Assembly: GCA_035996875.1 (NCBI GenBank)
Contig: DASYJD010000013.1
Span: 114-64,113, forward strand
Direction: 5' to 3'
DNA length: 64,000 nucleotides
Source of the DNA: Thermoanaerobaculia bacterium
Lineage (GTDB): Bacteria > Acidobacteriota > Thermoanaerobaculia > Multivoradales > UBA5704
Shown: piece by piece, positions 14,771 to 42,643 of the stretch
How positions within the stretch are numbered: the first letter of the stretch is position 1
Layout of the letters: every line of letters begins with the position of its first letter
Notes under the pieces: generated by a model
Databases searched by the model: none
Told to the model about the DNA's origin: nothing
The model's input: the letters and a program-made list of their open reading frames with translations, nothing else
Made by a program: the position numbers and the translations under genes

Positions 14771-15654
14771 CGATTGTCTCCACGCTCGGTCAGGACATCG
14801 TAAAGCCGCATGAGCTCCTCTTCCGAATGGAAGTGGATCCGCACGAATCCCCCTTTGCCCTGGCGCTTGATCTCCACCCGGGTCTGGAGGCGGCGGGTGA
14901 GCTTCTCCTCCGCGGCGACGGTATGGACCTCGGCCGGACGGTCCGCTTTCTGCTTCGTTTTCGCCGGTTCTTTGGCAGCGGCGGTCAGCCGCTCGAGATC
15001 GCGGGCGGAGAGCCCCTCCCGCACCGCGCGCTCGGCGAGGAGGATCTGCTCGTCGGCATTCTCCAGACCCAACAGGGGACGGGCCTGGCCGGCGGTGAGC
15101 TGCCCCTCGCGCAGCAGCTCCCGCACCTCCTCCGGCAGGCGCAGGAGGCGCAGTGCGTTGGTGACCGTGGTGCGGGCCTTGCCCACCCGGGTGGCCACGG
15201 CTTCCTGGGAAAGGCCGAACTTATCCTGAAGGGCGGCGTAGGCTTCCGCCTCTTCTAGCGGATTCAGGTCGCTGCGCTGAAGGTTTTCCACCAGCGCCAG
15301 CTCCAGCAGCTCGCGGTCGTCCGCCACCTCGCGCACCACCACCGGCACACTCTCCAGCCCGGCCTTGCGGGCCGCCCGCCAGCGGCGCTCGCCCGCGATG
15401 ATTGCCCAGCCTTCCCCCTCGGGAGTGACGACGAGGGGTTGCACGATTCCCTGCGCGCGGATGGAGTCCGCCAGCTCCTCGATTGCCGCATCGGCGAAGT
15501 GGGTGCGTGGCTGGAAGCGGTTCGGTCGCAGGCTGTCGATGGGCAGGGTGCGAATCCCCTCCGGCGGCTTTTCAGGGACGGTTTCGAGCAGGGAATCGAG
15601 GCCGCGGCCCAGACCCCGCTTCTTTGGGGAAGGGGAAGTTGTATTGGGATTCAA
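14767..15654 (-). CDS. parB: chromosome partitioning protein ParB (Spo0J)
   Basis: ParB box GERRWRAA and HTH region. 295 aa. Confidence 0.9.
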   Translation of the reverse strand: MNPNTTSPSPKKRGLGRGLDSLLETVPEKPPEGIRTLPIDSLRPNRFQPRTHFADAAIEELADSIRAQGIVQPLVVTPEGEGWAIIAGERRWRAARKAGLESVPVVVREVADDRELLELALVENLQRSDLNPLEEAEAYAALQDKFGLSQEAVATRVGKARTTVTNALRLLRLPEEVRELLREGQLTAGQARPLLGLENADEQILLAERAVREGLSARDLERLTAAAKEPAKTKQKADRPAEVHTVAAEEKLTRRLQTRVEIKRQGKGGFVRIHFHSEEELMRLYDVLTERGDNR

Positions 15655-16403
15655 GCCGCCCTCCGCAGAAGCTCGCGGGCCACGGCCAGGTAGGCTTCGG
15701 CGCCCCGCGATTTGATGTCGTACTGGAAAATCGGCAGGCCATGGCTCGGCGCCTCGGCCAGGCGGATGTTGCGCGGCACCACCGTCTCGAACACCTTGCC
15801 GGCGAAGTGGGAGCGGATGTCCTCGGCCACGTCCTTCGACAGGTTGGTGCGGTCGTCATACATGGTCAGCAGGATGCCGGCGATGACGAGGCGGGGGTTC
15901 AGGCTGCCCTGCACCCGGCGGACCGTCGTCATCAGCTCGCTGATCCCTTCGAGCGCGAAGTACTCGCACTGCAGGGGAACGAGAACGCCGTCCGCCGCCG
16001 TCAAAGCGCTCACCGTCAGATGTCCAAGGGAGGGAGGGCAGTCGATGAGGATGGTGTCGTAGCGGTCCGCCACCGTCGCGAGGATTCCCTTGAGGCGCCC
16101 CTCCCAGCCGGACTCGCCCACGAACTCCACTTCGATACCCACCAGGTCGCGTTGCGAAGGAACGAGGTCGAGGTTGGGAAAGCCGGAGGGGCGGATCGCC
16201 TCCGCCAGCTGCACCTCGCCGGTCAAGGCGTTGTAGAGGTGCGGCGGGGAAGCCTTGCCGCCCAAGCCGCGGGTGGCATTGCCCTGAGGATCGCAGTCCA
16301 CCAGCAGGACGCGGCGCTCCAAGGCGCCGAGCCCGGCACCGAGGTTGATAGCGGTGGTGGTCTTGCCGACTCCACCCTTCTGATTCGCAATGGCGAGGAT
16401 CAT
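15651..16403 (-). CDS. parA: chromosome partitioning ATPase ParA (Soj)
   Basis: MILAIANQKGGVGKTTTAINL deviant Walker A. The 5' extension of the track ORF was rejected. Confidence 0.9.
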   Translation of the reverse strand: MILAIANQKGGVGKTTTAINLGAGLGALERRVLLVDCDPQGNATRGLGGKASPPHLYNALTGEVQLAEAIRPSGFPNLDLVPSQRDLVGIEVEFVGESGWEGRLKGILATVADRYDTILIDCPPSLGHLTVSALTAADGVLVPLQCEYFALEGISELMTTVRRVQGSLNPRLVIAGILLTMYDDRTNLSKDVAEDIRSHFAGKVFETVVPRNIRLAEAPSHGLPIFQYDIKSRGAEAYLAVARELLRRAA

Positions 16404-16426
16404 GGTCTTTTCGGCTTTCACGGCTC

Positions 16427-17062
16427 TCAAACTTGACGCAGGACCAGAATGCGCCGCCTTTCGCTGCCCGCCAGCTTGACGTCGCCACAGGTCACGAGGT
16501 CCGGCGGCAGACCGGGGTCCTGCTCGCCCACCCAGAGGATGATGCGCCCCCCGTCTCCCAGGCGCCGCGAGAGAGCCCCCCATACATCTGAATCGAGGCG
16601 CAAGGCTCGCGAGGTGATCACGTCGAGGCTCTCGGGCAGGCCGGACGGCAACGGAAGCCGCACTCTAACATTGAGGCATCGGCAGGACAAAGAGGCCCGG
16701 CGCGCGGCGGAGAGAAGGAACGCCCACTTCCGCTCCCGGGCCTCAACCAGGGTCATTTCCAGCTCCGGCCGCGCGGCGGCCAGCACCAGCCCGGGAAACC
16801 CCGCGCCTGATCCTAAATCCAGCCCCGTCTTCGCCCCAGCCGGCAGGAGAGGCAGCGCCGCCAGCGATTCGCCGAAGTGGCGGGCCAGGATTTCCCCGGC
16901 AGTGCCCGGCCCGATCAAGTTGAGCCGCTCGTTCCAGCGCCCCAACTCCTGGTAGTAGGCGTAGAGAGAATCCAACCCCTCAGAGCCCAGAGGCTCAGGG
17001 GAAAAGGGAGCCAGCTCGGAGGCGAAGTCGGCGCGTGAGAGGCGGGGGAGGGGAAAGGGCAT
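16427..17062 (-). CDS. rsmG: 16S rRNA (guanine527-N7)-methyltransferase RsmG (GidB)
   Basis: GidB family SAM-binding motif LDLGSGAGFPGLVLA. Conserved position upstream of parAB. Confidence 0.85.
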   Translation of the reverse strand: MPFPLPRLSRADFASELAPFSPEPLGSEGLDSLYAYYQELGRWNERLNLIGPGTAGEILARHFGESLAALPLLPAGAKTGLDLGSGAGFPGLVLAAARPELEMTLVEARERKWAFLLSAARRASLSCRCLNVRVRLPLPSGLPESLDVITSRALRLDSDVWGALSRRLGDGGRIILWVGEQDPGLPPDLVTCGDVKLAGSERRRILVLRQV

Positions 17063-17138
17063 ATCGGGGACGTTTCACGTGAAACGTAGGCACGCGGACA
17101 GCGGGGACGTTCCACGTGGAACGTCCCCTTTGGAATCT

Positions 17139-19998: not shown

Positions 19999-20205
19999 CT
20001 AGGGGAGATCGATCCCGCCCGGATGGAACGGCTGGCAGCGCAGGAGCCGGCCGGTGGCCCGCAGCCCCCCGCGCCAGAAGCCGTATTTGAGAAGCGCCAG
20101 CCGGGCATACTCCGAACAGGTCGGAGTGAACCGGCAGGCGCGAGGGAGCAGGGGAGAGAGGCGGCGCTTGTAGACGCCGAGCAGGTACACCAGGAGACGA
20201 GTCAA
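19999..20205 (-). CDS. yidD: membrane protein insertion efficiency factor YidD
   Basis: LLGVYKRRLSPLLPRACRFTPTCSEYARLALLKYG matches the YidD (haemolytic domain) consensus. Putative TTG start overlaps the rnpA stop (TTGA). Confidence 0.7.
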   Translation of the reverse strand: MTRLLVYLLGVYKRRLSPLLPRACRFTPTCSEYARLALLKYGFWRGGLRATGRLLRCQPFHPGGIDLP

Positions 20206-20600
20206 GCCGCCGGCCCTCGCCGCTCCCGCAGGCCGGAGAACAGCCGCAGCAGCTCCGTCCGCAGCGAGGGGAAGTCGCTGCCCCGGGCCTCGGGCTTGAG
20301 GTGGATCACCAGGTCCAACGCAGGAAGCTGGCTGCGGTGCGGCCATCGCCGGTAGATCTCTTTGATCCTGCGCTTGAGCCGCTGGCGGACGACGGCCTTG
20401 CCGACCTTGCGGCTGGCGGTGATTCCGAGGCGCGGCCCCTCGAGCTGGTTCGGTACGAAATAGAGAATCGCCAGCGAGCCATGCCGCCGGCGTCCCGTCC
20501 GGTAACACCTGAGGTAGTCCTTCCGCTGCCGGAGCCGCTCTTCGGCCGACAGCCGTTCCGTGCCGGAGGCAGAGCGCGGGTGGCGCTCCTCGTCCGGCAT
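20202..20600 (-). CDS. rnpA: ribonuclease P protein component RnpA
   Basis: LRQRKDYLRCYRTGRRRHGSLAILYFVPN...ASRKVGKAVVRQRLKRRIKE. ATG overlaps the rpmH stop (TGATG). Confidence 0.8.
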   Translation of the reverse strand: MPDEERHPRSASGTERLSAEERLRQRKDYLRCYRTGRRRHGSLAILYFVPNQLEGPRLGITASRKVGKAVVRQRLKRRIKEIYRRWPHRSQLPALDLVIHLKPEARGSDFPSLRTELLRLFSGLRERRGPAA

Positions 20601-20734
20601 CAGACGCTCAGGCGCTTGCGTCCCTTCCGGCGCCGCCGGGCGATCACTGCCTGGCCGTGGCGGGTGCGCATCCGCACCAGGAATCCGTGCGTCCGCTTGC
20701 GGCGACGGTTGTTGGGCTGAAAAGTCCGTTTCAC
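20600..20734 (-). CDS. rpmH: 50S ribosomal protein L34
   Basis: Manual translation from a GTG start gives [44 protein letters not shown]. Not in the ORF track because it is under 60 aa. Confidence 0.85.
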
Positions 20735-20882
20735 TTGAGACCGCCTTCTTCCAAGTCGTGGTCATGATTTGCGGGATCGCCGGTCCTCCGGGGACCGCCC
20801 GCCGCGTCGAACGAAACCAATAAGGTAGATCACCTGGAGCTCGGGCGTCAAGAACCGCCCGTCCCGTACGAGTCGAAAGCGA

Positions 20883-20972
20883 ATGGCGGAGAGGGTGGGA
20901 TTCGAACCCACGGACCGGTTGCCCGGTCAACGGTTTTCGAGACCGTCCCATTCGACCGCTCTGGCACCTCTC
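20883..20972 (-). tRNA. tRNA-Ser (anticodon CGA), long variable arm
   Basis: Reverse complement GGAGAGGTGCCAGAGCGGTCGAATGG...GGTTCGAATCCCACCCTCTCCGCCA. Anticodon loop CT-CGA-AA, T-loop GGTTCGAATCC, encoded CCA. Confidence 0.8.
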
Positions 20973-20994
20973 CGGTAATTTGTCTGTCGAGATC

Positions 20995-21084
20995 GTGGCG
21001 GAGAGAGTGGGATTCGAACCCACGGTAGAGTTTCCCCTACACACGCTTTCCAAGCGTGCTCCTTAAGCCACTCGGACATCTCTC
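20995..21084 (-). tRNA. tRNA-Ser (anticodon GGA), long variable arm
   Basis: Reverse complement GGAGAGATGTCCGAGTGGCTTAAGGAGCACGCTTGGAAAGCGTG...GGTTCGAATCCCACTCTCTCCGCCA. Anticodon loop TT-GGA-AA. Confidence 0.8.
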
Positions 21085-21108
21085 CCGATCCTGCAAAGAA
21101 CCTTGTCG

Positions 21109-21546
21109 TCAAGGCTTTCGCCGCAACGACGCAAAGAAGCCGCGCAACAGCGCGGCGCTCTCACTTTCGAGCACGCCCGCCGTCACCTCCAGCCGGTGAT
21201 TCAGCCGCGGATCCTGGACCAGGTTGCCCAGGGTGCCGCAGTAGCCGGCCTTAGGATCCGGCGCCCCGTAGACCAGCCGCTCGATGCGGCTGTTCACGAG
21301 GGCTCCGGCGCACATCGGGCACGGCTCCAGGGATGCGTACAGCGTGCAACCCGTCAGCCGCCAGCCACCCATCCGCCGCGCCGCCTCCCGGATGGCCAGG
21401 ATCTCGGCATGAGCCAGCGGATCGCCGTCGAGCTCCCGGCGGTTGTGGCCCCTCCCCAACACCTCCCCCTCCCGAACCACCACCGCCCCGATGGGGACTT
21501 CCCCCAACTCGCCGGCGCGTCGTGCCTCGGCGAGGGCTTCCAACAT
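21109..21546 (-). CDS. tadA: tRNA-specific adenosine deaminase TadA
   Basis: HAEILAIREAA ... PCPMCAGAL zinc-binding deaminase motifs. The upstream ORF extension is a translation of the 21-bp repeat array and was rejected. Confidence 0.85.
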   Translation of the reverse strand: MLEALAEARRAGELGEVPIGAVVVREGEVLGRGHNRRELDGDPLAHAEILAIREAARRMGGWRLTGCTLYASLEPCPMCAGALVNSRIERLVYGAPDPKAGYCGTLGNLVQDPRLNHRLEVTAGVLESESAALLRGFFASLRRKP

Positions 21547-21648
21547 CCAGAGAGGGTCTTCTGGTCTCTCCAAGGCAAGCCTCCGCCCGAGCGGAACGCG
21601 TATGTTACCCGAGAAGGGCTCAAGCGCAAAGCCCGAGGCTTGACCAAA

Positions 21649-21860
21649 CTCAAGCCGGAGCAATGACTGCTCAAGCCGGAGCAACGGCTGCTCAAGCCAG
21701 AGCAACGGCTGCTCAAGCCGGAGCAACGGCTGCTCAAGCCGGAGCAACGACTGCTCAAGCCGGAGCAACGACTGCTCAAGCCGGAGCAACGACTGCTCAA
21801 GCCGGAGCAATGGCTGCTCAAGCCGGAGCAATGGCTGCTCAAGCCAGAGCAACGGCTGCT
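21649..21860. repeat. 21-bp tandem repeat array, ~10 copies (unit CAACGGCTGCTCAAGCCGGAG, reverse complement of the 2861-3040 array)
   Basis: Head-to-tail copies with point variants (CAATGACTG / CAACGACTG / CAATGGCTG), directly upstream of the tadA start. Confidence 0.85.
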
Positions 21861-21988
21861 CTAACAGCGGTAGCGGCACCATGCCCTAAGAGTCCCCCTC
21901 TCCACCTTCGGGCACAACCTCTATATAGAGGCGGCGGGCTCCGCCGGCGTTTCCGCTGTCCGAGACCCGCCCCCAGAGGAGCCGCACC

Positions 21989-23686: not shown

Positions 23687-23932
23687 TCTATGGAATGCCT
23701 GCCCGCCCCCGCCTGTTGTTCCAGATCCCGGACTCCGGGCTACGTTCTTTACTTCCCTGATCCCACGACGTAGCATGAGCAGCCTTAGGACAGTGGCCCA
23801 CGAAGGGTTCGGGTCCTGTGCATCGGCCGATACCGAACCTCGTCAGGCCCGGAAGGGAGCAGCGATAAGGTATCCGGACGAGTGCCGCAGATTCACCGGA
23901 ACCCTTCGTTGACCACTGCCGGCAAAACACCC

Positions 23933-33426: not shown

Positions 33427-34332
33427 ATGAAGATCGCCATTCTGTCGCGCAAGGCGACCCTGTATTCGACCCGGCGCCTCGTCGAGGCCTGCGGGCAGCG
33501 GGCCGCGGAGGTCCAGGTGCTCGACCCGCTGCAGTGCGTGGTCAAGTTGTCGAAGAAACGGCCCGAGGTGTTCCACGACAACGAGCGAGTGACCGGCCTC
33601 GACGGCGTGGTGCCACGGATCGGCGCCTCCGTCACCTTCTACGGCTTGGCCGTGCTGCGCCAGTTCGAGATGATGGGGGTCTTCCCGGCCAACGAGAGCC
33701 AGGCTATCTCCCGCAGCCGCGACAAGCTGCGCAGCCTTCAGCTCCTGTCGCGTCACGACATCGGCATCCCGCCCACGGCGTTCGCCTGGCGGCGCGAGGA
33801 CGTCCGCTCGGCCATCCGGCGGGTGGGCGGCGCGCCGGTCATCCTCAAGCTGCTCGAAGGAACGCAGGGCAAGGGTGTCATTCTGGCCGAGTCGGTCAAA
33901 TCGGCGGAGTCGGTCCTCGACGCCATGAGCTCTCTGCGCCAGAACATCCTCATCCAGGCCTTCGTCGCGGAGGCGCAGGGGACGGACTACCGCGCCATCG
34001 TCGTCGGCGGCCAGGTGGTGGCCGCCATGTCGCGCCGGGCCGGCGAGGGGGAGTTCCGCAGCAATCTCCACCGCGGGGGCACGGCGGAAGGCGTCGAGCT
34101 TCCCGCCGACTACGTGTCCACGGCTCTGCACGCCGCCGAGGTGCTGGGCCTGAACATCGCCGGGGTGGATTTGATCCCCTCGAAGGACGGACCGATGGTG
34201 CTCGAGGTCAACAGCTCCCCGGGCCTGGAGGGGATCGAGAAGGCCACCGGCGTCGACGTGGCGGGCCACATGATCGACTTCGTCCTCGCGCACGCCTCGC
34301 GTGGTCATCCCACCACCCGGGGACGAGGGTGA
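33427..34332 (+). CDS. rimK: ribosomal protein S6--L-glutamate ligase RimK (ATP-grasp)
   Basis: MKIAILSRKATLYSTRRL...VILKLLEGTQGKGV...NIAGVDLIPSKDGPMVLEVNSSPGLEGIE. Confidence 0.9.
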   Translation: MKIAILSRKATLYSTRRLVEACGQRAAEVQVLDPLQCVVKLSKKRPEVFHDNERVTGLDGVVPRIGASVTFYGLAVLRQFEMMGVFPANESQAISRSRDKLRSLQLLSRHDIGIPPTAFAWRREDVRSAIRRVGGAPVILKLLEGTQGKGVILAESVKSAESVLDAMSSLRQNILIQAFVAEAQGTDYRAIVVGGQVVAAMSRRAGEGEFRSNLHRGGTAEGVELPADYVSTALHAAEVLGLNIAGVDLIPSKDGPMVLEVNSSPGLEGIEKATGVDVAGHMIDFVLAHASRGHPTTRGRG

Positions 34333-34363
34333 GCCGGCCCGGAGCCGGCGGAAGGGCTCTCCG

Positions 34364-36073
34364 ATGAAAAAGCTGCTGCTGATCTTCGTCGCACTGCTGG
34401 GGATCGCGGTCCTTGCCACCCTCGGCGGCATCCTGGCGAGCCGCAGAGGCCAGGCTGCCCGCGACGGCGCCACGGTCCTCGTCTGGAAGCTGGACGGTCC
34501 GGTGCTGGAGCAGGAGGTGCCGCGCCTCCCCTTCTCCAGCGTCGCCGAGCCCGACAGCATCGCGCAGCTCTATCCAGCCTTCCGGGCCGCCCGCCTGGAT
34601 CCCGGGATCAAAGGGCTCGCCGTCTACATCCAGAGCGCCGAGCTCGGCCTCGCCAAGGCGCAGGAGCTGCGGCGGCAGATGATGGCCCTGCGCCGAGCCG
34701 GCAAGTTCGTCGAGTGCTACGTGGAGACTGCCGGCGAGGGATCGAACGGTACCCTGGCCTACTACCTGGCCACGGCCTGCGAGCATATCCACCTCTCGCC
34801 GGCGGGCGACCTCAATCTGCTGGGCCTCTCCTGGGAGACCCGGCTGCTGCGCGGCACGCTGGACAAGCTGAAGATCGACCCTCAATTCAACCGCGTGGGC
34901 CGCTACAAGAGCGCCGTCGAGACCTACACCCAAACCCGGCTCACCCCTGAAGCCCAGGAGGCCGTCGCGGCGCTGCTCGACGGCTACTTCTCCCAGATCG
35001 TCTCGGCGGTGGCCGAAGCCCGCAAGAAGAGCGAGCCGGAAGTCCGCGCGCTGGTCGACGCCGCGCCGTATGACGCGGAGACGGCGCTCAAGCGGGGCCT
35101 GGTCGACGACCTCCTCTATCCGGACCAGTTCCTCGACCTCCTAAGAAAGCGCCTGGGCCGCAAGCCCACGCTGCTGCCGATCGAGGAGTACCGGCCCGAG
35201 CCCACCTTCGCCGCCAAACAGGTCGCCATCGTCTTCGCCCTCGGCACCATCGTGCGGGGAGGAGGAGGCAGCGCGCCCTGGACGGAGGAGAGCTACCTCG
35301 GCTCGGACAAGATGGCCGAGGTGCTCCGCGACCTGCGCGAGGACGATTCGGTGGCCGCCGTCGTGCTGCGCATCGACAGCCCCGGCGGCTCGGCGCTGGC
35401 CTCGGACCTCATCCTGCGCCAGGTGGAGAAGCTCAAGCAGAGGAAGCCTGTCGTCGTCTCGATGTCCGACGCGGCCGCCTCCGGCGGTTACTACATCGCC
35501 GCCAAGGCCACCAAGATCGTCGCCGAGCCCGCGACACTCACCGGCTCGATCGGCGTCTTCGGCGGCAAGTTCGTCACCCGCCGCCTGGAAGAGGAGATCC
35601 TGGGGATCAGCCACGACTCCCAGAAGCGGGGAGCCAACGCCGACATCTACTCCGAGCTGCAGCCCTACACGCCCCAGCAGGAGGCCCTCGTGCAGCAGCT
35701 CCTCGACCGCACCTATGCCGCCTTCGTCGGCCACGTCGCCAGCGGCCGCAAGATGAGCCGTGCGGCAGTGGAAGTGGTGGCGAGCGGCCGGGTCTGGACG
35801 GGCGCCGCGGCCCAGAAGATCGGTCTGGTCGACGAGCTCGGCGGACTCGATCGGGCCGTGGAGCTGGCCCGGTCGGAAGCCGGGATCGGCCCGCGCGAGA
35901 CGATGGCCGTCGACTTCTATCCCGCCCCTCCGACCTGGCTCGACATCTTCCTCGCGAAACGCGAGCCGCGCCTCCCGGGAGCCCTGGCGGAGATCGTAAA
36001 GGGGCTTGAAATGACTCCGCCCCGCCTGCTCGAGCTACCTCCTGAGCTGGCCCGCCTGAGCCGCCCCTTCTGA
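34364..36073 (+). CDS. sppA: signal peptide peptidase SppA (protease IV, 67K type)
   Basis: N-terminal TM, two ClpP/crotonase-like S49 domains, and catalytic serine context MSDAAASGGYYIA. Confidence 0.85.
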   Translation: MKKLLLIFVALLGIAVLATLGGILASRRGQAARDGATVLVWKLDGPVLEQEVPRLPFSSVAEPDSIAQLYPAFRAARLDPGIKGLAVYIQSAELGLAKAQELRRQMMALRRAGKFVECYVETAGEGSNGTLAYYLATACEHIHLSPAGDLNLLGLSWETRLLRGTLDKLKIDPQFNRVGRYKSAVETYTQTRLTPEAQEAVAALLDGYFSQIVSAVAEARKKSEPEVRALVDAAPYDAETALKRGLVDDLLYPDQFLDLLRKRLGRKPTLLPIEEYRPEPTFAAKQVAIVFALGTIVRGGGGSAPWTEESYLGSDKMAEVLRDLREDDSVAAVVLRIDSPGGSALASDLILRQVEKLKQRKPVVVSMSDAAASGGYYIAAKATKIVAEPATLTGSIGVFGGKFVTRRLEEEILGISHDSQKRGANADIYSELQPYTPQQEALVQQLLDRTYAAFVGHVASGRKMSRAAVEVVASGRVWTGAAAQKIGLVDELGGLDRAVELARSEAGIGPRETMAVDFYPAPPTWLDIFLAKREPRLPGALAEIVKGLEMTPPRLLELPPELARLSRPF

Positions 36074-36240
36074 CCGAGACACCGGCCCTAAACATTTGAG
36101 GACAAAGCGGTTCTTTGCTGTAATCCGGGGATTTCACCGGCCAGCTCTTTGGGGGCTTGCGGGACGTTTCGGGTGTTGCTATGATGGCTGCCGTCGAAGT
36201 CAGTCACTCAAACCGCTCCAGCAGCACTCCTCGGCCGAGG

Positions 36241-36273
36241 ATTTCCACAATCTGTGGAATTTCTGTGGAAAAA
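36241..36273. promoter_or_regulatory. three DnaA-box-like motifs upstream of dnaA (ATTTCCACA, TGTGGAATT, TGTGGAAAA)
   Basis: 7-8 of 9 matches to TTATCCACA / TGTGGATAA, clustered 40-70 bp upstream of the dnaA ATG. Confidence 0.45.
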
Positions 36274-36309
36274 TAGCGTCCGTTCCACCTGAGGTCCCAT
36301 AGGTTTTCA

Positions 36310-37596
36310 ATGCCGTCCCTCTGGTCTCTTCTTCAAAGGCAGTTACAACAACAACTCGACCCCGAGGAGTTCGCCACCTGGTTTCGCCCGTTGAAGGTGG
36401 GCGACGAGAACGGCGGCCGGCTCGTGCTCCTGGCGCCGAACTCGCGGTTCCTGCACACTCTGGAGGAGAGCTACCGGCCCGCCGTGGACCGGGCGGTCGC
36501 CGGCCTCGCGGGACCGGGTTTCGAGGTTCTGTTCTCCCTCGAAGACGAGTTGGTGCCTGACGACGAGCCGCTGATCACACCCTCGCGCTTCAACCCGAGA
36601 TATTTGTTCGCCAACTTCGTCAAGGGAAAGTCGAACGAGCTCGCCGAGGCGGCGGCGCGGCGGGTGGCCGAGAACCCGTCCCTCTCCTACAACCCGCTCT
36701 TCATCTATGGTGGAGTCGGCCTGGGAAAGACCCACCTGCTGCACGCCATCGGGCACGAGATCCAGCGCAGCCGGCCACAGCTCCGGGTGCTGTACCTGTC
36801 CGCCGAGCAGTTCACCAACGAGCTCATCAACTCCATCCGCTTCGACCGCATGCCGGCATTCCGGGAGCGCTACCGCACGATCGACGTCCTCATGATCGAC
36901 GACGTGCAGTTCCTGGCCAGCAAGGAACGGACGCAGGAGGAGTTCTTCCACACCTTCAACACTCTCTACACGAGCCAGAAGCAGATCATCATTTCCTCCG
37001 ACGCGCCGCCGCGCAACATTCCGACGCTGGAGGAACGGCTGCGCAGCCGCTTCGAGTGGGGGTTGATCGCCGACATCCAGCCGCCGGACCTCGAGACCAA
37101 GATGGCGATCCTGCAGGGTAAGGCCGCCCTCGAAGGATCGAGTCTCCCCGAGGAGGTCGCGGAGTTCATTGCCCTGCAGGTGAGGTCCAACGTCCGCGAG
37201 CTCGAAGGGCACCTCAACCGCGTGCTCGCCTTCGCCGAGCTGACGGGAAAGCCCCTCAACCTGGCCCTGGCGCGGGAGACCCTGAAGGACATCCTGCCGG
37301 AGGAGGGCAAAAAGCCCGCCGCGGCCGAGATCATCAAGTTCGTGGCCCGGCACTACGACCTCAAGGTGTCGGAGATCAAGAGCAAGAGCAACTCGCGGCA
37401 GATCGTCATCCCCCGCCAAGTGGCGATGTTCCTCTGCAAGCGCCTGACGGACCTCTCCTACCCGGAGATCGGCAAGCTCTTCAACGACAAGCACCACTCG
37501 ACGGTCATGTACTCCGTCGAGACGGTCGACAAGAAGCGCGAAGCCGACCCGGACTTCGACCGCACCTTGAAGAGCCTCGAGGCGCACTTCACTTGA
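36310..37596 (+). CDS. dnaA: chromosomal replication initiator protein DnaA
   Basis: GGVGLGKTHLLHAIG Walker A, sensor motifs, and C-terminal DNA-binding domain (VARHYDLKVSEIKSKSNSRQIVIPRQVAMFLCKRLTDLSYPEIG). Confidence 0.95.
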   Translation: MPSLWSLLQRQLQQQLDPEEFATWFRPLKVGDENGGRLVLLAPNSRFLHTLEESYRPAVDRAVAGLAGPGFEVLFSLEDELVPDDEPLITPSRFNPRYLFANFVKGKSNELAEAAARRVAENPSLSYNPLFIYGGVGLGKTHLLHAIGHEIQRSRPQLRVLYLSAEQFTNELINSIRFDRMPAFRERYRTIDVLMIDDVQFLASKERTQEEFFHTFNTLYTSQKQIIISSDAPPRNIPTLEERLRSRFEWGLIADIQPPDLETKMAILQGKAALEGSSLPEEVAEFIALQVRSNVRELEGHLNRVLAFAELTGKPLNLALARETLKDILPEEGKKPAAAEIIKFVARHYDLKVSEIKSKSNSRQIVIPRQVAMFLCKRLTDLSYPEIGKLFNDKHHSTVMYSVETVDKKREADPDFDRTLKSLEAHFT

Positions 37597-37852
37597 GAGG
37601 GCCGCAGGGGAAAGCCTGTGGAACCGCTTCGGAGGCCCTGTGGAGGATCTGCGGAATTTTTTCCGGCCTTCGGTGTTTTCCTCCGCCTCCTCAAGACCTC
37701 CACAGGTTCTCCGCAACCCGGGGTGGGGAACCTAAACTTCCTCCCGTCTGGCACTTAGACCCCTTTTCCCCGTTTCCGCAGCCCCTATGTACTACTACGT
37801 CTATGCTATATTCAGGTGTCCTCTGGTAGAGGTAGCAGACGGAGAAGAGTGA
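37597..37852. promoter_or_regulatory. candidate oriC (dnaA-dnaN intergenic): DnaA-box-like motifs plus AT-rich putative unwinding element
   Basis: CTGTGGAAC, CTGTGGAGG and CCTCCACAGG motifs, plus the AT-rich TATGTACTACTACGTCTATGCTATATTC (~37785-37815) in an otherwise 68% GC genome. Confidence 0.5.
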
Positions 37853-38953
37853 ATGGAAATCCGCGTCACCCGTAGTGAGTTTCTGGCCGAGCTGGCCCCC
37901 ATGCAGGGTATCGTCGAGCGCAAGACCACCATCCCGGTCCTTTCCCACCTGCTGCTCACCGCCCGCGAGGACAAGCTCCATCTGGCAGCGACCGACCTGG
38001 ACGTCTCCCTCACCTCCTGGTGCGATGCCGACGTGAAGCGCGAAGGCGGCATCGCCGTCCAGGCCAAGAAGTTGATGGAGATCATCCGCTCGCTCACCGG
38101 GGAAGAGGTCCTCATCGTCCAGGAGGACCCCAGAGTCCTCACCATCCGGGCCGGCAAATCGCGCTTCAAGATCCACGGCCTGTCGCCGGACGACTTTCCG
38201 ACGCTTCCGTCCGTCGACGATGGCCGGAAGGTCGAGATTCCCTTCTCCGACTTCCGCCGCATGGTCACCAAGATCCTCTTCGCCGTCTCGGCCGAGGAAT
38301 CGCGCTTCCAGTTGAACGGCGCCCTCCTGAAGCTCAAGGACGGTTCGCTGGAGATGGTGGCGACCGACGGCCACCGCCTCGCGCTGGTGGAGGGTGGCCT
38401 TGGAGGGAACAACGGCAGCGAAGACTCGGTCCTGGTGCCCCGCAAGGCCTTGCAGGAGCTTCAGCGCCTGGAGGGGGACGGCAACCTCCTCTATGGCCGT
38501 GGCGAGCACCACCTCTCCTTTAGCCTCGGCCGGCGCGAGTTGATTTGCCGCATCCTCGAAGGGACCTTTCCAGACTACGAGCGGGTTATCGCCAAGGACA
38601 ACGACAAGAAGGTCCTCTTCGACCGCAAGAATCTGGTGGACGCCGTCCAGCGCGCCGCTCTCATGACGGGAGACCGGGCTCGGGCCGTGCGCCTCCAGTT
38701 CTCCCCGGAGCAAATGGTGATCTCGGCCGTCAACTCCGACCTCGGCGAGGCCATGGAAGAGGTACCCTGCGATTACGACGGGCCGGAGTTCCGGGTGGGA
38801 ATCAACCCGGACTACCTGACCCAGTTCCTGCGGGAAGTGGAAACCGAGAAGGTCCGCCTGGAGCTCAAAGACGAGAACACCCAGTGCGTCGGCTATCCGC
38901 ACGAGGGTCCGGACACCCGGTACCTCTGCGTCATCATGCCGATGCGCATCTGA
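37853..38953 (+). CDS. dnaN: DNA polymerase III beta sliding clamp
   Basis: MEIRVTRSEFLAELAPMQGIVERKTTIPVLSHLLL. 366 aa. Conserved dnaA-dnaN order. Confidence 0.95.
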   Translation: MEIRVTRSEFLAELAPMQGIVERKTTIPVLSHLLLTAREDKLHLAATDLDVSLTSWCDADVKREGGIAVQAKKLMEIIRSLTGEEVLIVQEDPRVLTIRAGKSRFKIHGLSPDDFPTLPSVDDGRKVEIPFSDFRRMVTKILFAVSAEESRFQLNGALLKLKDGSLEMVATDGHRLALVEGGLGGNNGSEDSVLVPRKALQELQRLEGDGNLLYGRGEHHLSFSLGRRELICRILEGTFPDYERVIAKDNDKKVLFDRKNLVDAVQRAALMTGDRARAVRLQFSPEQMVISAVNSDLGEAMEEVPCDYDGPEFRVGINPDYLTQFLREVETEKVRLELKDENTQCVGYPHEGPDTRYLCVIMPMRI

Positions 38954-38971
38954 CCGGATCAAAACCGACCG

Positions 38972-40039
38972 CTGCTCACCCGGCTCACCGCCCGCGACTT
39001 CCGAAACCTGGAGCCCCTCACCTGGGAGCCCGGTGCCGGCTCCCACCTCCTCCTGGGGGGCAATGGCGCGGGCAAGACCAGCCTCCTCGAAGCCATCTAC
39101 GTCGCGGCCACCACGCGTAGCTTTCGCGCCGCCCAGATCGCCGACTGCACGCGTCACGGCGCGGGTTCCTTCCATGTTCAGGCGGACGCCGAGACTGACC
39201 ACCGTTCCACCCTCGAAGTCGGCTGGATGGACGGCCAGCGGCTGCGGCTCCTCAACGGCAAGGCGACCCCCCTCTCCGAGCACCTCTCAGCCCTGCCTGT
39301 AGTGGCCTGGACCGCGGCGGCCGAGGCCGAGGTGTTGGTTGGCACACCCAAAGCTCGCCGGCGCTTCATGGACCGCGGGCTGGTGGGTATCCACCCCGCG
39401 GCCCTGGAGCTGCTGGGCCGCTACCGCGAGGCTCTGCGCCAGAAGCGCGGGCTTTTGCTGGGAGATGGTGCAGGCCTCGAGATCTGGAACGAGCTGCTTG
39501 GCGCCACCGCGGCGGACGTAATCGCCCAGCGGCACCGCTACGTCGAGCTCCTCAAGGTGCAGCTCGCGGGGATTCTTGTGGACTCAGGCCTGCCGTTCCC
39601 ACCCATTGAGCTTCACTACCGTCCCTCCCCGGCCAACGGCCTCGAGGGCCCGGAGGCCATCGCCGACGCTCTCGACCGCATCGCCGACCGCGAGCGCCGC
39701 CGCCAACTCCCACTGCTCGGGCCCCACCGCGACGAGCTCGAAATCCTCTGGGATGGCCATGAGATCCGCAGGGTCGCGTCCGCTGGCGAGCGCAAGAGCC
39801 TGTCTCTCATGCTGTTGGCCGCCCACGGCCGGGTCATGGAAGAAGGAGGGAGGACCCCGGTCTACCTTCTGGACGACACCGACGCCGAGCTGGCGCCGTC
39901 GACCGTGGCCGCCGTCTGGAGCGTGTTTCGTCACGCCGGCCAGCTCCTGGCGACCTCGAACCGTCCGCAGGTCTGGTTGACTCTGGAGGTGGGCCGGATC
40001 TGGGAGATGGAAAAAGGGGTTCTGCAGCTCATTTCCTGA
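38972..40039 (+). CDS. recF: DNA replication and repair protein RecF
   Basis: LTRLTARDFRNLEPLTW...GGNGAGKTSLLEAIY Walker A and C-terminal signature. No ATG/GTG/TTG lies between the dnaN stop and the Walker A, so the start is probably the CTG at 38972 or otherwise non-canonical. Confidence 0.8.
   Translation: MLTRLTARDFRNLEPLTWEPGAGSHLLLGGNGAGKTSLLEAIYVAATTRSFRAAQIADCTRHGAGSFHVQADAETDHRSTLEVGWMDGQRLRLLNGKATPLSEHLSALPVVAWTAAAEAEVLVGTPKARRRFMDRGLVGIHPAALELLGRYREALRQKRGLLLGDGAGLEIWNELLGATAADVIAQRHRYVELLKVQLAGILVDSGLPFPPIELHYRPSPANGLEGPEAIADALDRIADRERRRQLPLLGPHRDELEILWDGHEIRRVASAGERKSLSLMLLAAHGRVMEEGGRTPVYLLDDTDAELAPSTVAAVWSVFRHAGQLLATSNRPQVWLTLEVGRIWEMEKGVLQLIS

Positions 40040-40072: not shown

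Positions 40073-42643
<2,571 letters not shown>

Follow-up and report, generated by a model that had tools for sequence, protein, structure and literature searches.

The 256-bp spacer between dnaA and dnaN (positions 37597-37852) in a 64,000-nucleotide stretch of a Thermoanaerobaculia genome (assembly GCA_035996875.1, contig DASYJD010000013.1; the whole stretch is referred to as the window) probably holds the unwinding module of a chromosomal replication origin (oriC) of the dnaA-dnaN type, a reading to which we assign a probability of roughly 0.85 on the basis of its sequence. The spacer carries a phased array of DnaA boxes that ends in a box pair pointing toward dnaN, followed by a short GC cluster, a run of DnaA-trios and the least stable DNA of the window. 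The gene on the left, dnaA (36310-37596, plus strand, 428 aa), was identified by its match to TIGR00362 (517 bits, E 3e-155), and the gene on the right, dnaN (37853-38953, plus strand, 366 aa), by its match to TIGR00663 (291 bits); the Shine-Dalgarno sequence of dnaN, GGAG at 37841-37844, and its start are kept in relatives. An initial annotation of this DNA had already proposed a dnaA-dnaN type oriC with boxes plus a DNA unwinding element (DUE) and had given the spacer as 256 bp; the coordinates agree with that length, and the box cluster, the minimum of duplex stability, the geometry of the basal unwinding system (BUS) and the conservation of the locus all fit the proposal.

The BUS has been described for Bacillus subtilis and is predicted in most bacteria. 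By analogy, DnaA would bind the phased box array in the spacer and, from the dnaN-oriented pair at 37764-37780, ATP-DnaA would oligomerise onto the bottom-strand trios at 37786-37803, so that the duplex would be stretched and opened at its weakest DNA (37785 to about 37834), creating the helicase entry site. Three further boxes upstream of dnaA (U1 to U3) might serve to load DnaA at a distance, with dnaA looped out between the two clusters; the origin would then be bipartite. DnaA binding, unwinding and origin firing, as well as the two promoter roles proposed below for dnaA and dnaN, are predicted; the sequence itself shows the motifs, how they cluster and are arranged, their conservation in relatives and a low stability of the duplex at the site.

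DnaA boxes of the dnaA-dnaN spacer

The locus was compared with 80 related dnaA loci including 10-kb flanks (designated L001 and so on where individual loci are named), 74 of which have dnaN downstream, usually after a spacer of 250-500 bp. The closest DnaA relatives were found in L004, a Holophagales metagenome-assembled genome (MAG; 82% over a partial match), followed by Multivoradales and Acidobacteria MAGs (65-67%) and then Thermoanaerobaculia (54-55%). A DnaA-box matrix was iterated from 366 sites in 79 Acidobacteriota relatives, and its consensus, TTTTCCACA, obtained here independently, is also the standard motif given for Acidobacteria in the published BUS table (Pelliciari 2021, supplementary file 3). 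The most widespread 8-mers, TGTGGAAA, GTGGAAAA and CTGTGGAA, were the same in the dnaA upstream regions and in the spacers of the relatives. With this matrix, the following boxes were assigned in the spacer of the window:

37617-37625, minus strand: S1, GGTTCCACA, 3.5 bits
37639-37647, minus strand: S2, TCCTCCACA, 5.8 bits
37650-37658, minus strand: S3, AATTCCGCA, 8.2 bits
37676-37684, plus strand: S3b, TTTTCCTCC, 10.1 bits
37696-37704, plus strand: S4, ACCTCCACA, 6.2 bits
37707-37715, plus strand: S5, TTCTCCGCA, 9.2 bits
37764-37772, plus strand: S6a, TTTTCCCCG, degenerate, 2.2 bits
37772-37780, plus strand: S6b, GTTTCCGCA, two mismatches to TTTTCCACA, abutting S6a, 8.4 bits

The three spacer motifs named in the initial annotation, CTGTGGAAC (37616), CTGTGGAGG (37638) and CCTCCACAGG (37696), are present, and further motifs can be read on the top strand as TGCGGAATT (37650), TTTTCCTCC (37676), TTCTCCGCA (37707), TTTTCCCCG (37764) and GTTTCCGCA (37772). 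Clustering was tested by counting matrix matches of at least 6 bits in the spacer and in 2000 dinucleotide shuffles of the spacer itself. Five such matches were found within about 135 bp, compared to 0.36 expected, and none of the 2000 shuffles reached that number; the spacer is also the densest 300-bp interval for boxes in the 64 kb. The earlier claim of further spacer boxes is therefore borne out for the cluster, whereas two of the three motifs that it named score below 6 bits. Both this cluster and the boxes upstream of dnaA hold up against a matrix threshold, which the initial annotation had suggested as a check.

The distribution of short motifs points in the same direction, with all five window copies of TGTGGAA located within 36243-37623 and six of the seven copies of CTGTGGA located in the two intergenic regions. 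A plain search of the window for TTATCCACA with up to two mismatches showed no enrichment (51 matches versus 45.8 expected); the signal is thus visible only through clustering and through the clade-specific consensus. One criterion used to recognize oriC calls for three or more clustered DnaA boxes spaced on average less than 100 bp apart (PMC7561715), and such a cluster was found both in the spacer and upstream of dnaA.

Boxes S1 to S3 point to dnaA and away from the unwinding site, and boxes S3b to S6b point to dnaN and the unwinding site. Within the sub-arrays, box starts are spaced by 11, 22, 11 and 11 nt (S1 to S2, 22; S2 to S3, 11; S4 to S5, 11), and these multiples of 11 nt place the boxes on one helical face. 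S2 and S3 together with S4/S5 form a 26-nt imperfect inverted repeat. The block formed by S2 and S3, CCCTGTGGAGGnTCTGCGGA, is nearly identical in L004, which has also kept the S4/S5 cores TCCACAG and TCCnCAA.

One further box-like sequence, TCTTCCACA (36944-36952, 10.2 bits), was found inside dnaA; it is encoded by the codons of the conserved peptide EEFFHTFN and is probably a by-product of the protein sequence rather than a regulatory site.

The probable unwinding module and its counterparts in other genomes

At the 3' end of the spacer, the top strand reads, in order, the box pair TTTTCCCCG-TTTCCGCA (37764-37780), GCCCC, a series of triplets and TGcTATATT, which together with the candidate DUE make up the following features:

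37781-37785: GC cluster GCCCC between box and trios; L004 and L003 share it, and L002 and L005-L008 have GC-rich counterparts
37786-37803, minus strand: DnaA-trio region, top strand TAT GTA CTA CTA CGT CTA, bottom strand 3'-ATA CAT GAT GAT GCA GAT-5'
37804-37812, plus strand: TGcTATATT, AT-rich end of the unwinding region and likely extended -10 of a predicted dnaN promoter
37785-37834: candidate DUE, lowest duplex stability by nearest-neighbour energies

Nearest-neighbour energies were calculated for all 30-mers and 50-mers in the 64 kb. The segment 37785-37814 was found to be the least stable 30-mer (-33.5 kcal/mol versus a mean of -46.6) and 37785-37834 the least stable 50-mer, and the AT-rich, helically unstable DNA that characterizes a DUE is thus found right beside the boxes, in a short element. 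The AT-rich stretch itself (37786-37813) has a GC content of about 32%. The AT-rich element of about 30 bp that the initial annotation described is accordingly present; it appears, however, to be composite, consisting mostly of DnaA-trios plus the likely extended -10 of dnaN, rather than a classical long DUE.

The published search rules for a BUS require a box with no more than two mismatches to the species motif, a spacer of 0-16 bp and at least three consecutive NAN trios, and the box-to-trio spacer has its mode at 12-13, counted from the better upstream box (Pelliciari 2021). S6b has two mismatches to TTTTCCACA and falls within this limit, whereas against TTATCCACA it has three and would fail. 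It lies 5 nt from 37786 and 8 nt from the first NAN trio (37789), and S6a lies 13 nt from 37786. The trios 3'-CAT GAT GAT-5' (37789-37797) are followed by GCA and then by GAT, giving exactly the minimum number of consecutive NAN trios. In a BUS, 5'-TTATCCACA-3' and the 5'-CTA-3' repeats are found on one strand with the box upstream, and the window shows this orientation as GTTTCCGCA-gcccc-TAT GTA CTA CTA; the GC cluster ahead of the trios also belongs to the published BUS description. A stricter definition, 3'-[G/A]A[T/A]-5' repeated more than three times after a GC cluster, has been given as well (PMC7561715), and the window, with GAT GAT plus one separated GAT, falls short of it. L004 carries four GAT copies at the homologous place, which suggests that the trio module is eroded in the window and not absent.

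The box and trio arrangement of the window received a combined score of 13, a value that was equalled in 3 of 3000 spacer shuffles, and TACTACTAC occurs only once in the 64 kb. The sole other match in the 64 kb that resembles a box with trios (22313) was found on inspection to be a terminator T-tail followed by a promoter.

Sequence comparisons revealed that about 45 nt, from TTCCGCAG through TATGCTATATTCAG and covering box, trios and -10, are identical in L004, in which TTCCGCAG is invariant relative to the window and the rest of the spacer is conserved in patches. L004, L002, L005-L008 and many distant Acidobacteriota likewise have CTA repeats at this position. The abutting pair geometry, TTTTCCACA followed by TTTCCACAG, was found in many relatives, and many loci carry textbook TTTTCCACA-TTTCCACAG-gca-CTACTACTACTA modules. 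Across 68 loci, the best box and trio score was on average 12.25 in the forward orientation, compared to 8.8 in the reverse orientation, and scores of at least 14 were reached by 27/68 loci forward versus 3/57 reverse. The element that follows the trios is conserved as well: TGcTATATT is identical in L004 and L003, TGCTATATT is found in L002, TGaTAnnnT in L001 and L008-L011, and TGnTATAAT in several Terriglobia.

This element is of an extended -10 type, TGNTANNNT, of which 11 copies are present in the 64 kb. Five of these copies (36177, 37804, 40121 and 45318 on the plus strand and 51363 on the minus strand) are intergenic, within the approximately 16% of the DNA that is non-coding, and each is located just upstream of a gene and in the right orientation. 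As read from the sequence, TGcTATATT at the AT-rich end of the unwinding region thus probably doubles as the dnaN promoter. The copy at 40121 (TGGTATAAT) suggests that the gyrB start is downstream of the TTG at 40130.

Two relatives have spacers with repeats of other kinds. The L001 spacer contains a direct duplication (aagtagctatccggccaagaa twice) and at least six TCCACAG boxes, and the L007 spacer starts with a long inverted repeat (ggtttcatcctgagcgaagcgaaggatct... / ...agatccttcgc...ctcaggatgaaacc) that resembles a small mobile palindromic element; the same repeat type is present upstream of the L007 dnaA. At the protein level, the recognition helix in DnaA domain IV (window 37480-37500, residues approximately 391-397) reads KHH(S/T)TV in the window and in 78 of the 79 relatives in which the motif was found, and the solved DnaA structures (B. 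subtilis, E. coli, M. tuberculosis and A. aeolicus) have (R/K)DHTTV. This phylum-wide change from Asp to His, at the position aligned with E. coli D433, may be related to the preference for TTTTCCACA/TCCGCA.

Among known origins, the B. subtilis incC/BUS (DnaA-box#6/#7, GC cluster, trios, AT-rich DUE, dnaN; PMC6669920, PMC8287927) shares with the window its location in the dnaA-dnaN spacer, the abutting box pair directed toward the trios, the GC cluster of 4-5 nt, the CTA repeats on the top strand (3'-GAT-5' on the bottom strand), the AT-rich DNA before dnaN, the extra distal boxes upstream and the second box cluster before dnaA. The two differ in that the box consensus is TTTTCCACA in the window and TTATCCACA in B. 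subtilis, and in that the window has degenerate proximal boxes (TTTTCCCCG and GTTTCCGCA), only three consecutive NAN trios, an AT-rich part of about 10-25 nt in a genome of about 67% GC as compared to a 27-mer, and three upstream boxes as compared to the large incA/incB arrays; the module in the window is, moreover, recognized by sequence alone. The published BUS entry for Bacillus cereus has the same layout and orientation as the window, and the orientation is shared by the Koribacter entry and by the trio block of Clostridioides difficile.

A closer counterpart is found within the phylum in Koribacter versatilis Ellin345 (DoriC ORI20010193; Pelliciari 2021, supplementary file 3), which shares the standard box 3'-AAAAGGTGT-5' (equal to TTTTCCACA) and the second box TTTCCGCA. 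Its predicted BUS, 3'-AAAAGGTGA AAAGGCGT TCTG GATGAC...-5' at 1616-1658, lies right after dnaA (Pelliciari 2021), and, as in the window, two boxes are followed there by a short spacer and then by the trios. The first box of Koribacter is better (one mismatch) and is accompanied by seven trios, whereas in the lineage of the window (Holophagae/Thermoanaerobaculia-like) the first box is weaker, the trios are fewer and the conserved TGcTATATT follows them directly. The bipartite oriC of Clostridioides difficile (PMC7561715) is similar in that its boxes directly precede a trio block, 5'-CACCTACTACTATTACTACTATGA-3', which is followed by the DUE and then by dnaN, and in that a second box cluster is found upstream of dnaA. 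It differs in its low GC content, its larger number of boxes (9-19 and 5-9), the position of rpmH, which is adjacent to dnaA in C. difficile and 15.5 kb away in the window, and the type of evidence, as unwinding was shown there by P1 nuclease. No experimental study of an acidobacterial oriC was found in a search of the literature.

The triple box in the dnaA leader

In E. coli and B. subtilis, dnaA is autoregulated through operators, DnaA boxes that lie downstream of its promoter and ahead of its start codon. A comparable position would be occupied in the window by three boxes, two of which are the best matrix matches in the 64 kb; they are listed here with the likely promoter:

36157..36185, plus strand: likely dnaA promoter as read from the sequence, with -35 TTGCGG (36157-36162), a 17-nt spacer and extended -10 TGcTATGAT (36177-36185)
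36241-36249, plus strand: U1, ATTTCCACA, 18.8 bits, second-best matrix match in the 64 kb
36253-36261, minus strand: U2, AATTCCACA (top strand TGTGGAATT), 12.1 bits
36264-36272, minus strand: U3, TTTTCCACA (top strand TGTGGAAAA), perfect match to the clade consensus, 20.0 bits, best in the 64 kb

All three score at least 12 bits and fall within 32 bp, located 38-69 nt upstream of the dnaA ATG and approximately 55-90 nt downstream of the likely -10; three box-like 9-mers at 40-70 bp upstream of dnaA, as initially annotated, are thus confirmed. The start of U2 precedes that of U3 by 11 nt, or one helical turn, and the cluster is the fifth least stable among the 30-mers of the window. The head-to-head pairing of U1 and U2 is kept in relatives, and the complete layout (box, 1-5 nt, inverted box, 3-8 nt, box) was found in 30 of the 80 loci, compared to 3 matches in 1.34 Mb of control sequence, and extends to Aminicenantia, Vicinamibacterales and a Methylomirabilota MAG. 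In relatives, an element of the TGCTAnnAT type is located about 50-60 nt before the triple box.

The location of U1 to U3 between the likely promoter and the start codon, along with the conservation of their layout in 30/80 relatives, makes an autoregulatory role plausible. U1 to U3 most likely act as a leader operator that represses dnaA transcription, and possibly serve as a distal DnaA reservoir as well. While their position between the likely -10 and the dnaA ATG is shared with known dnaA operators, the window differs by the clade-specific, conserved triple layout, head-to-head plus tandem, and in that promoter and repression are both predicted here. The suggestion in the initial annotation that these boxes are autoregulatory is therefore reasonable in terms of position and conservation; the promoter on which it depends was read from the sequence, and a sigma-70 consensus scanner called no promoter in the region, where the dnaA -35 is weak. 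The scanner's terminator matches in the region were box pairs read as hairpins, and an Rfam search over 36000-37900 identified no RNA family. Reading of the sequence downstream of U1-U3 and of the leftward-pointing S1-S3 for a trio block revealed none.

Genomic setting and alternative readings

On the plus strand, the genes are ordered sppA (34301-36073), dnaA, dnaN, recF (approximately 38954-40039), gyrB and gyrA, and a set of origin-proximal genes comprising rpmH, rnpA, yidC and parA, along with a parS-like palindrome, is found 15-21 kb to the left of dnaA. Such a neighbourhood is that expected for a dnaA-adjacent oriC, with dnaN, recF, gyrB and gyrA on the right and rpmH, rnpA, yidC, parA and the parS-like site on the left. 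Both rpmH (approximately 20630-20764, GTG start) and rnpA (20202-20630) are encoded on the minus strand, about 15.5 kb from dnaA, in agreement with the initial annotation, which had placed them 15 kb away on the other strand. The intervening 15 kb or so contains mostly plus-strand genes, among them dnaX, the signal recognition particle (SRP) RNA, mutY, rimK and sppA; two tRNAs and tadA also lie in this interval. In L005-L011, the rpmH-rnpA-yidC block adjoins dnaA, with rpmH divergent from dnaA; L003 resembles the window in having sppA upstream of dnaA, which suggests that the rearrangement beside the origin is old.

Several other features were observed in this part of the window. The parS-like palindrome CGTTTCACGTGAAACG (17071-17086) has two mismatches to TGTTTCACGTGAAACA, both at outer positions, and is the sole such site in the 64 kb, with 0.02 expected; it is located just upstream of an ORF on the minus strand (16427-17074), which is followed by a ParA-family gene (15651-16664), and its position beside parA agrees with an origin-proximal neighbourhood. 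Two further intervals, 20887-21085 and 23807-23905, were noted along with the rpmH-rnpA region (20202-20764). Positions 21649-21861 contain 10.1 tandem copies of a 21-nt unit, CTCAAGCCGGAGCAACGGCTG, with 95% matches, in frame with the tadA ORF (21109-21882, minus strand). If the ATG at 21882 is used, this array would add an N-terminal run of LEQ(P/S)LLR heptads; otherwise, it represents an intergenic array upstream of tadA.

Several observations weigh against an origin in the spacer. The spacer boxes, about eight in number, each match the matrix weakly (2.2-10.1 bits), S6a, the upstream member of the proximal pair, is degenerate, the trio run is minimal, with three consecutive NAN trios and only two consecutive strict GAT, and the AT-rich patch is short and could also be read as a plain promoter -10. 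GC skew within the window, an analysis that covers 64 kb only, is noisy and uninformative as to the origin, with no switch at 37.7 kb and a cumulative minimum at approximately 44-45 kb; like GC3 skew (at third codon positions), it follows gene orientation and codon bias within the 64 kb. Most genes in the 10 kb or so to the left are on the plus strand and would be head-on to a leftward fork. Coding DNA is co-oriented to 74% on the right of the spacer but only to 43% on the left, the latter because the approximately 15 kb of mostly plus-strand genes separates dnaA from rpmH-rnpA-yidC.

In certain bacteria, among them E. coli and Caulobacter, the oriC is located away from dnaA. It is accordingly conceivable, though improbable, that the boxes at the locus are transcriptional operators of the dnaA and dnaN promoters only, that the AT-rich element is simply the dnaN -10, and that the true oriC is outside the window; most of the probability left over from the preferred reading falls to this one. 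The placement of U1-U3 between the likely promoter and the dnaA start, the fit of TGcTATATT to the extended -10 motif found upstream of other genes here and the absence of skew support for a switch at 37.7 kb would be consistent with this explanation, and a rearrangement of the E. coli origin has been noted (PMC8287927). A promoter would, however, leave unexplained the block of CTA repeats, which is found phylum-wide at a fixed distance from and orientation to a box and has the same design as experimentally validated BUS modules; eight phased boxes exceed what operators need, the least stable DNA of the window coincides exactly with the AT-rich element, and the dnaA-dnaN spacers are consistently about 250-500 bp long in 74 relatives. 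No comparable DnaA-box cluster was found elsewhere in the 64 kb, including beside rpmH and parA, and an alternative origin beside rpmH, tadA or parA was rejected for lack of a box cluster there. The idea that the motifs are chance matches in AT-richer intergenic DNA, with no DnaA function, might be entertained in view of the unenriched window-wide count of TTATCCACA with up to two mismatches and of overall TGTGGAA and CTGYGGA counts near expectation, but is effectively refuted by the extreme clustering, the presence of motifs at homologous positions in dozens of relatives and the failure of composition-matched shuffles to reproduce them.

A dnaA-dnaN type oriC with its unwinding module in the spacer is therefore preferred, and two refinements of this reading can be considered. 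The layout is bipartite, with U1-U3 upstream of dnaA and S1-S6, the trios and the AT-rich element downstream, and the upstream cluster (oriC1, 36241-36272) could be an obligatory part of the origin that loops to the spacer (oriC2), as in B. subtilis, H. pylori and C. difficile. Two clusters do flank dnaA, the upstream one has the sites of highest affinity as predicted by the matrix, the triple arrangement recurs in 30/80 loci, distant classes included, against 3 matches in the control sequence, and in B. subtilis a loop allows distal boxes to supply the proximal BUS with DnaA (PMC6669920). An obligatory role nevertheless appears possible rather than likely, given that there are only three upstream boxes with no AT-rich element or trios beside them, that autorepression explains their position in the 5' leader well enough, and that the spacer has distal boxes of its own (S1-S5). 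The other refinement, which is more speculative still and rather unlikely, is that the unwinding element is itself the dnaN promoter, with the trios at the -35 region and TGcTATATT as extended -10, so that a single 30-bp sequence would be the site of competition or cooperation between the RNA polymerase open complex and the DnaA filament, and dnaN transcription would be coupled to origin opening; in the same vein, the change from Asp to His in the DnaA helix might underlie both the TTTTCCACA preference and the tolerated TCCGCA box.

Arrangements of this kind are familiar, and one has been predicted in the phylum before, for Koribacter; the locus would be a routine new example, an ordinary oriC with a somewhat eroded BUS, and leaves the understanding of origins unchanged. 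It does provide a high-GC example in which the box and trio unwinding module persists in eroded form across Acidobacteriota. Moreover, it fixes the probable start of replication for an uncultured or poorly studied acidobacterial lineage, which is of use for assembly orientation, for growth rates estimated from metagenomic coverage and for analyses of strand bias.

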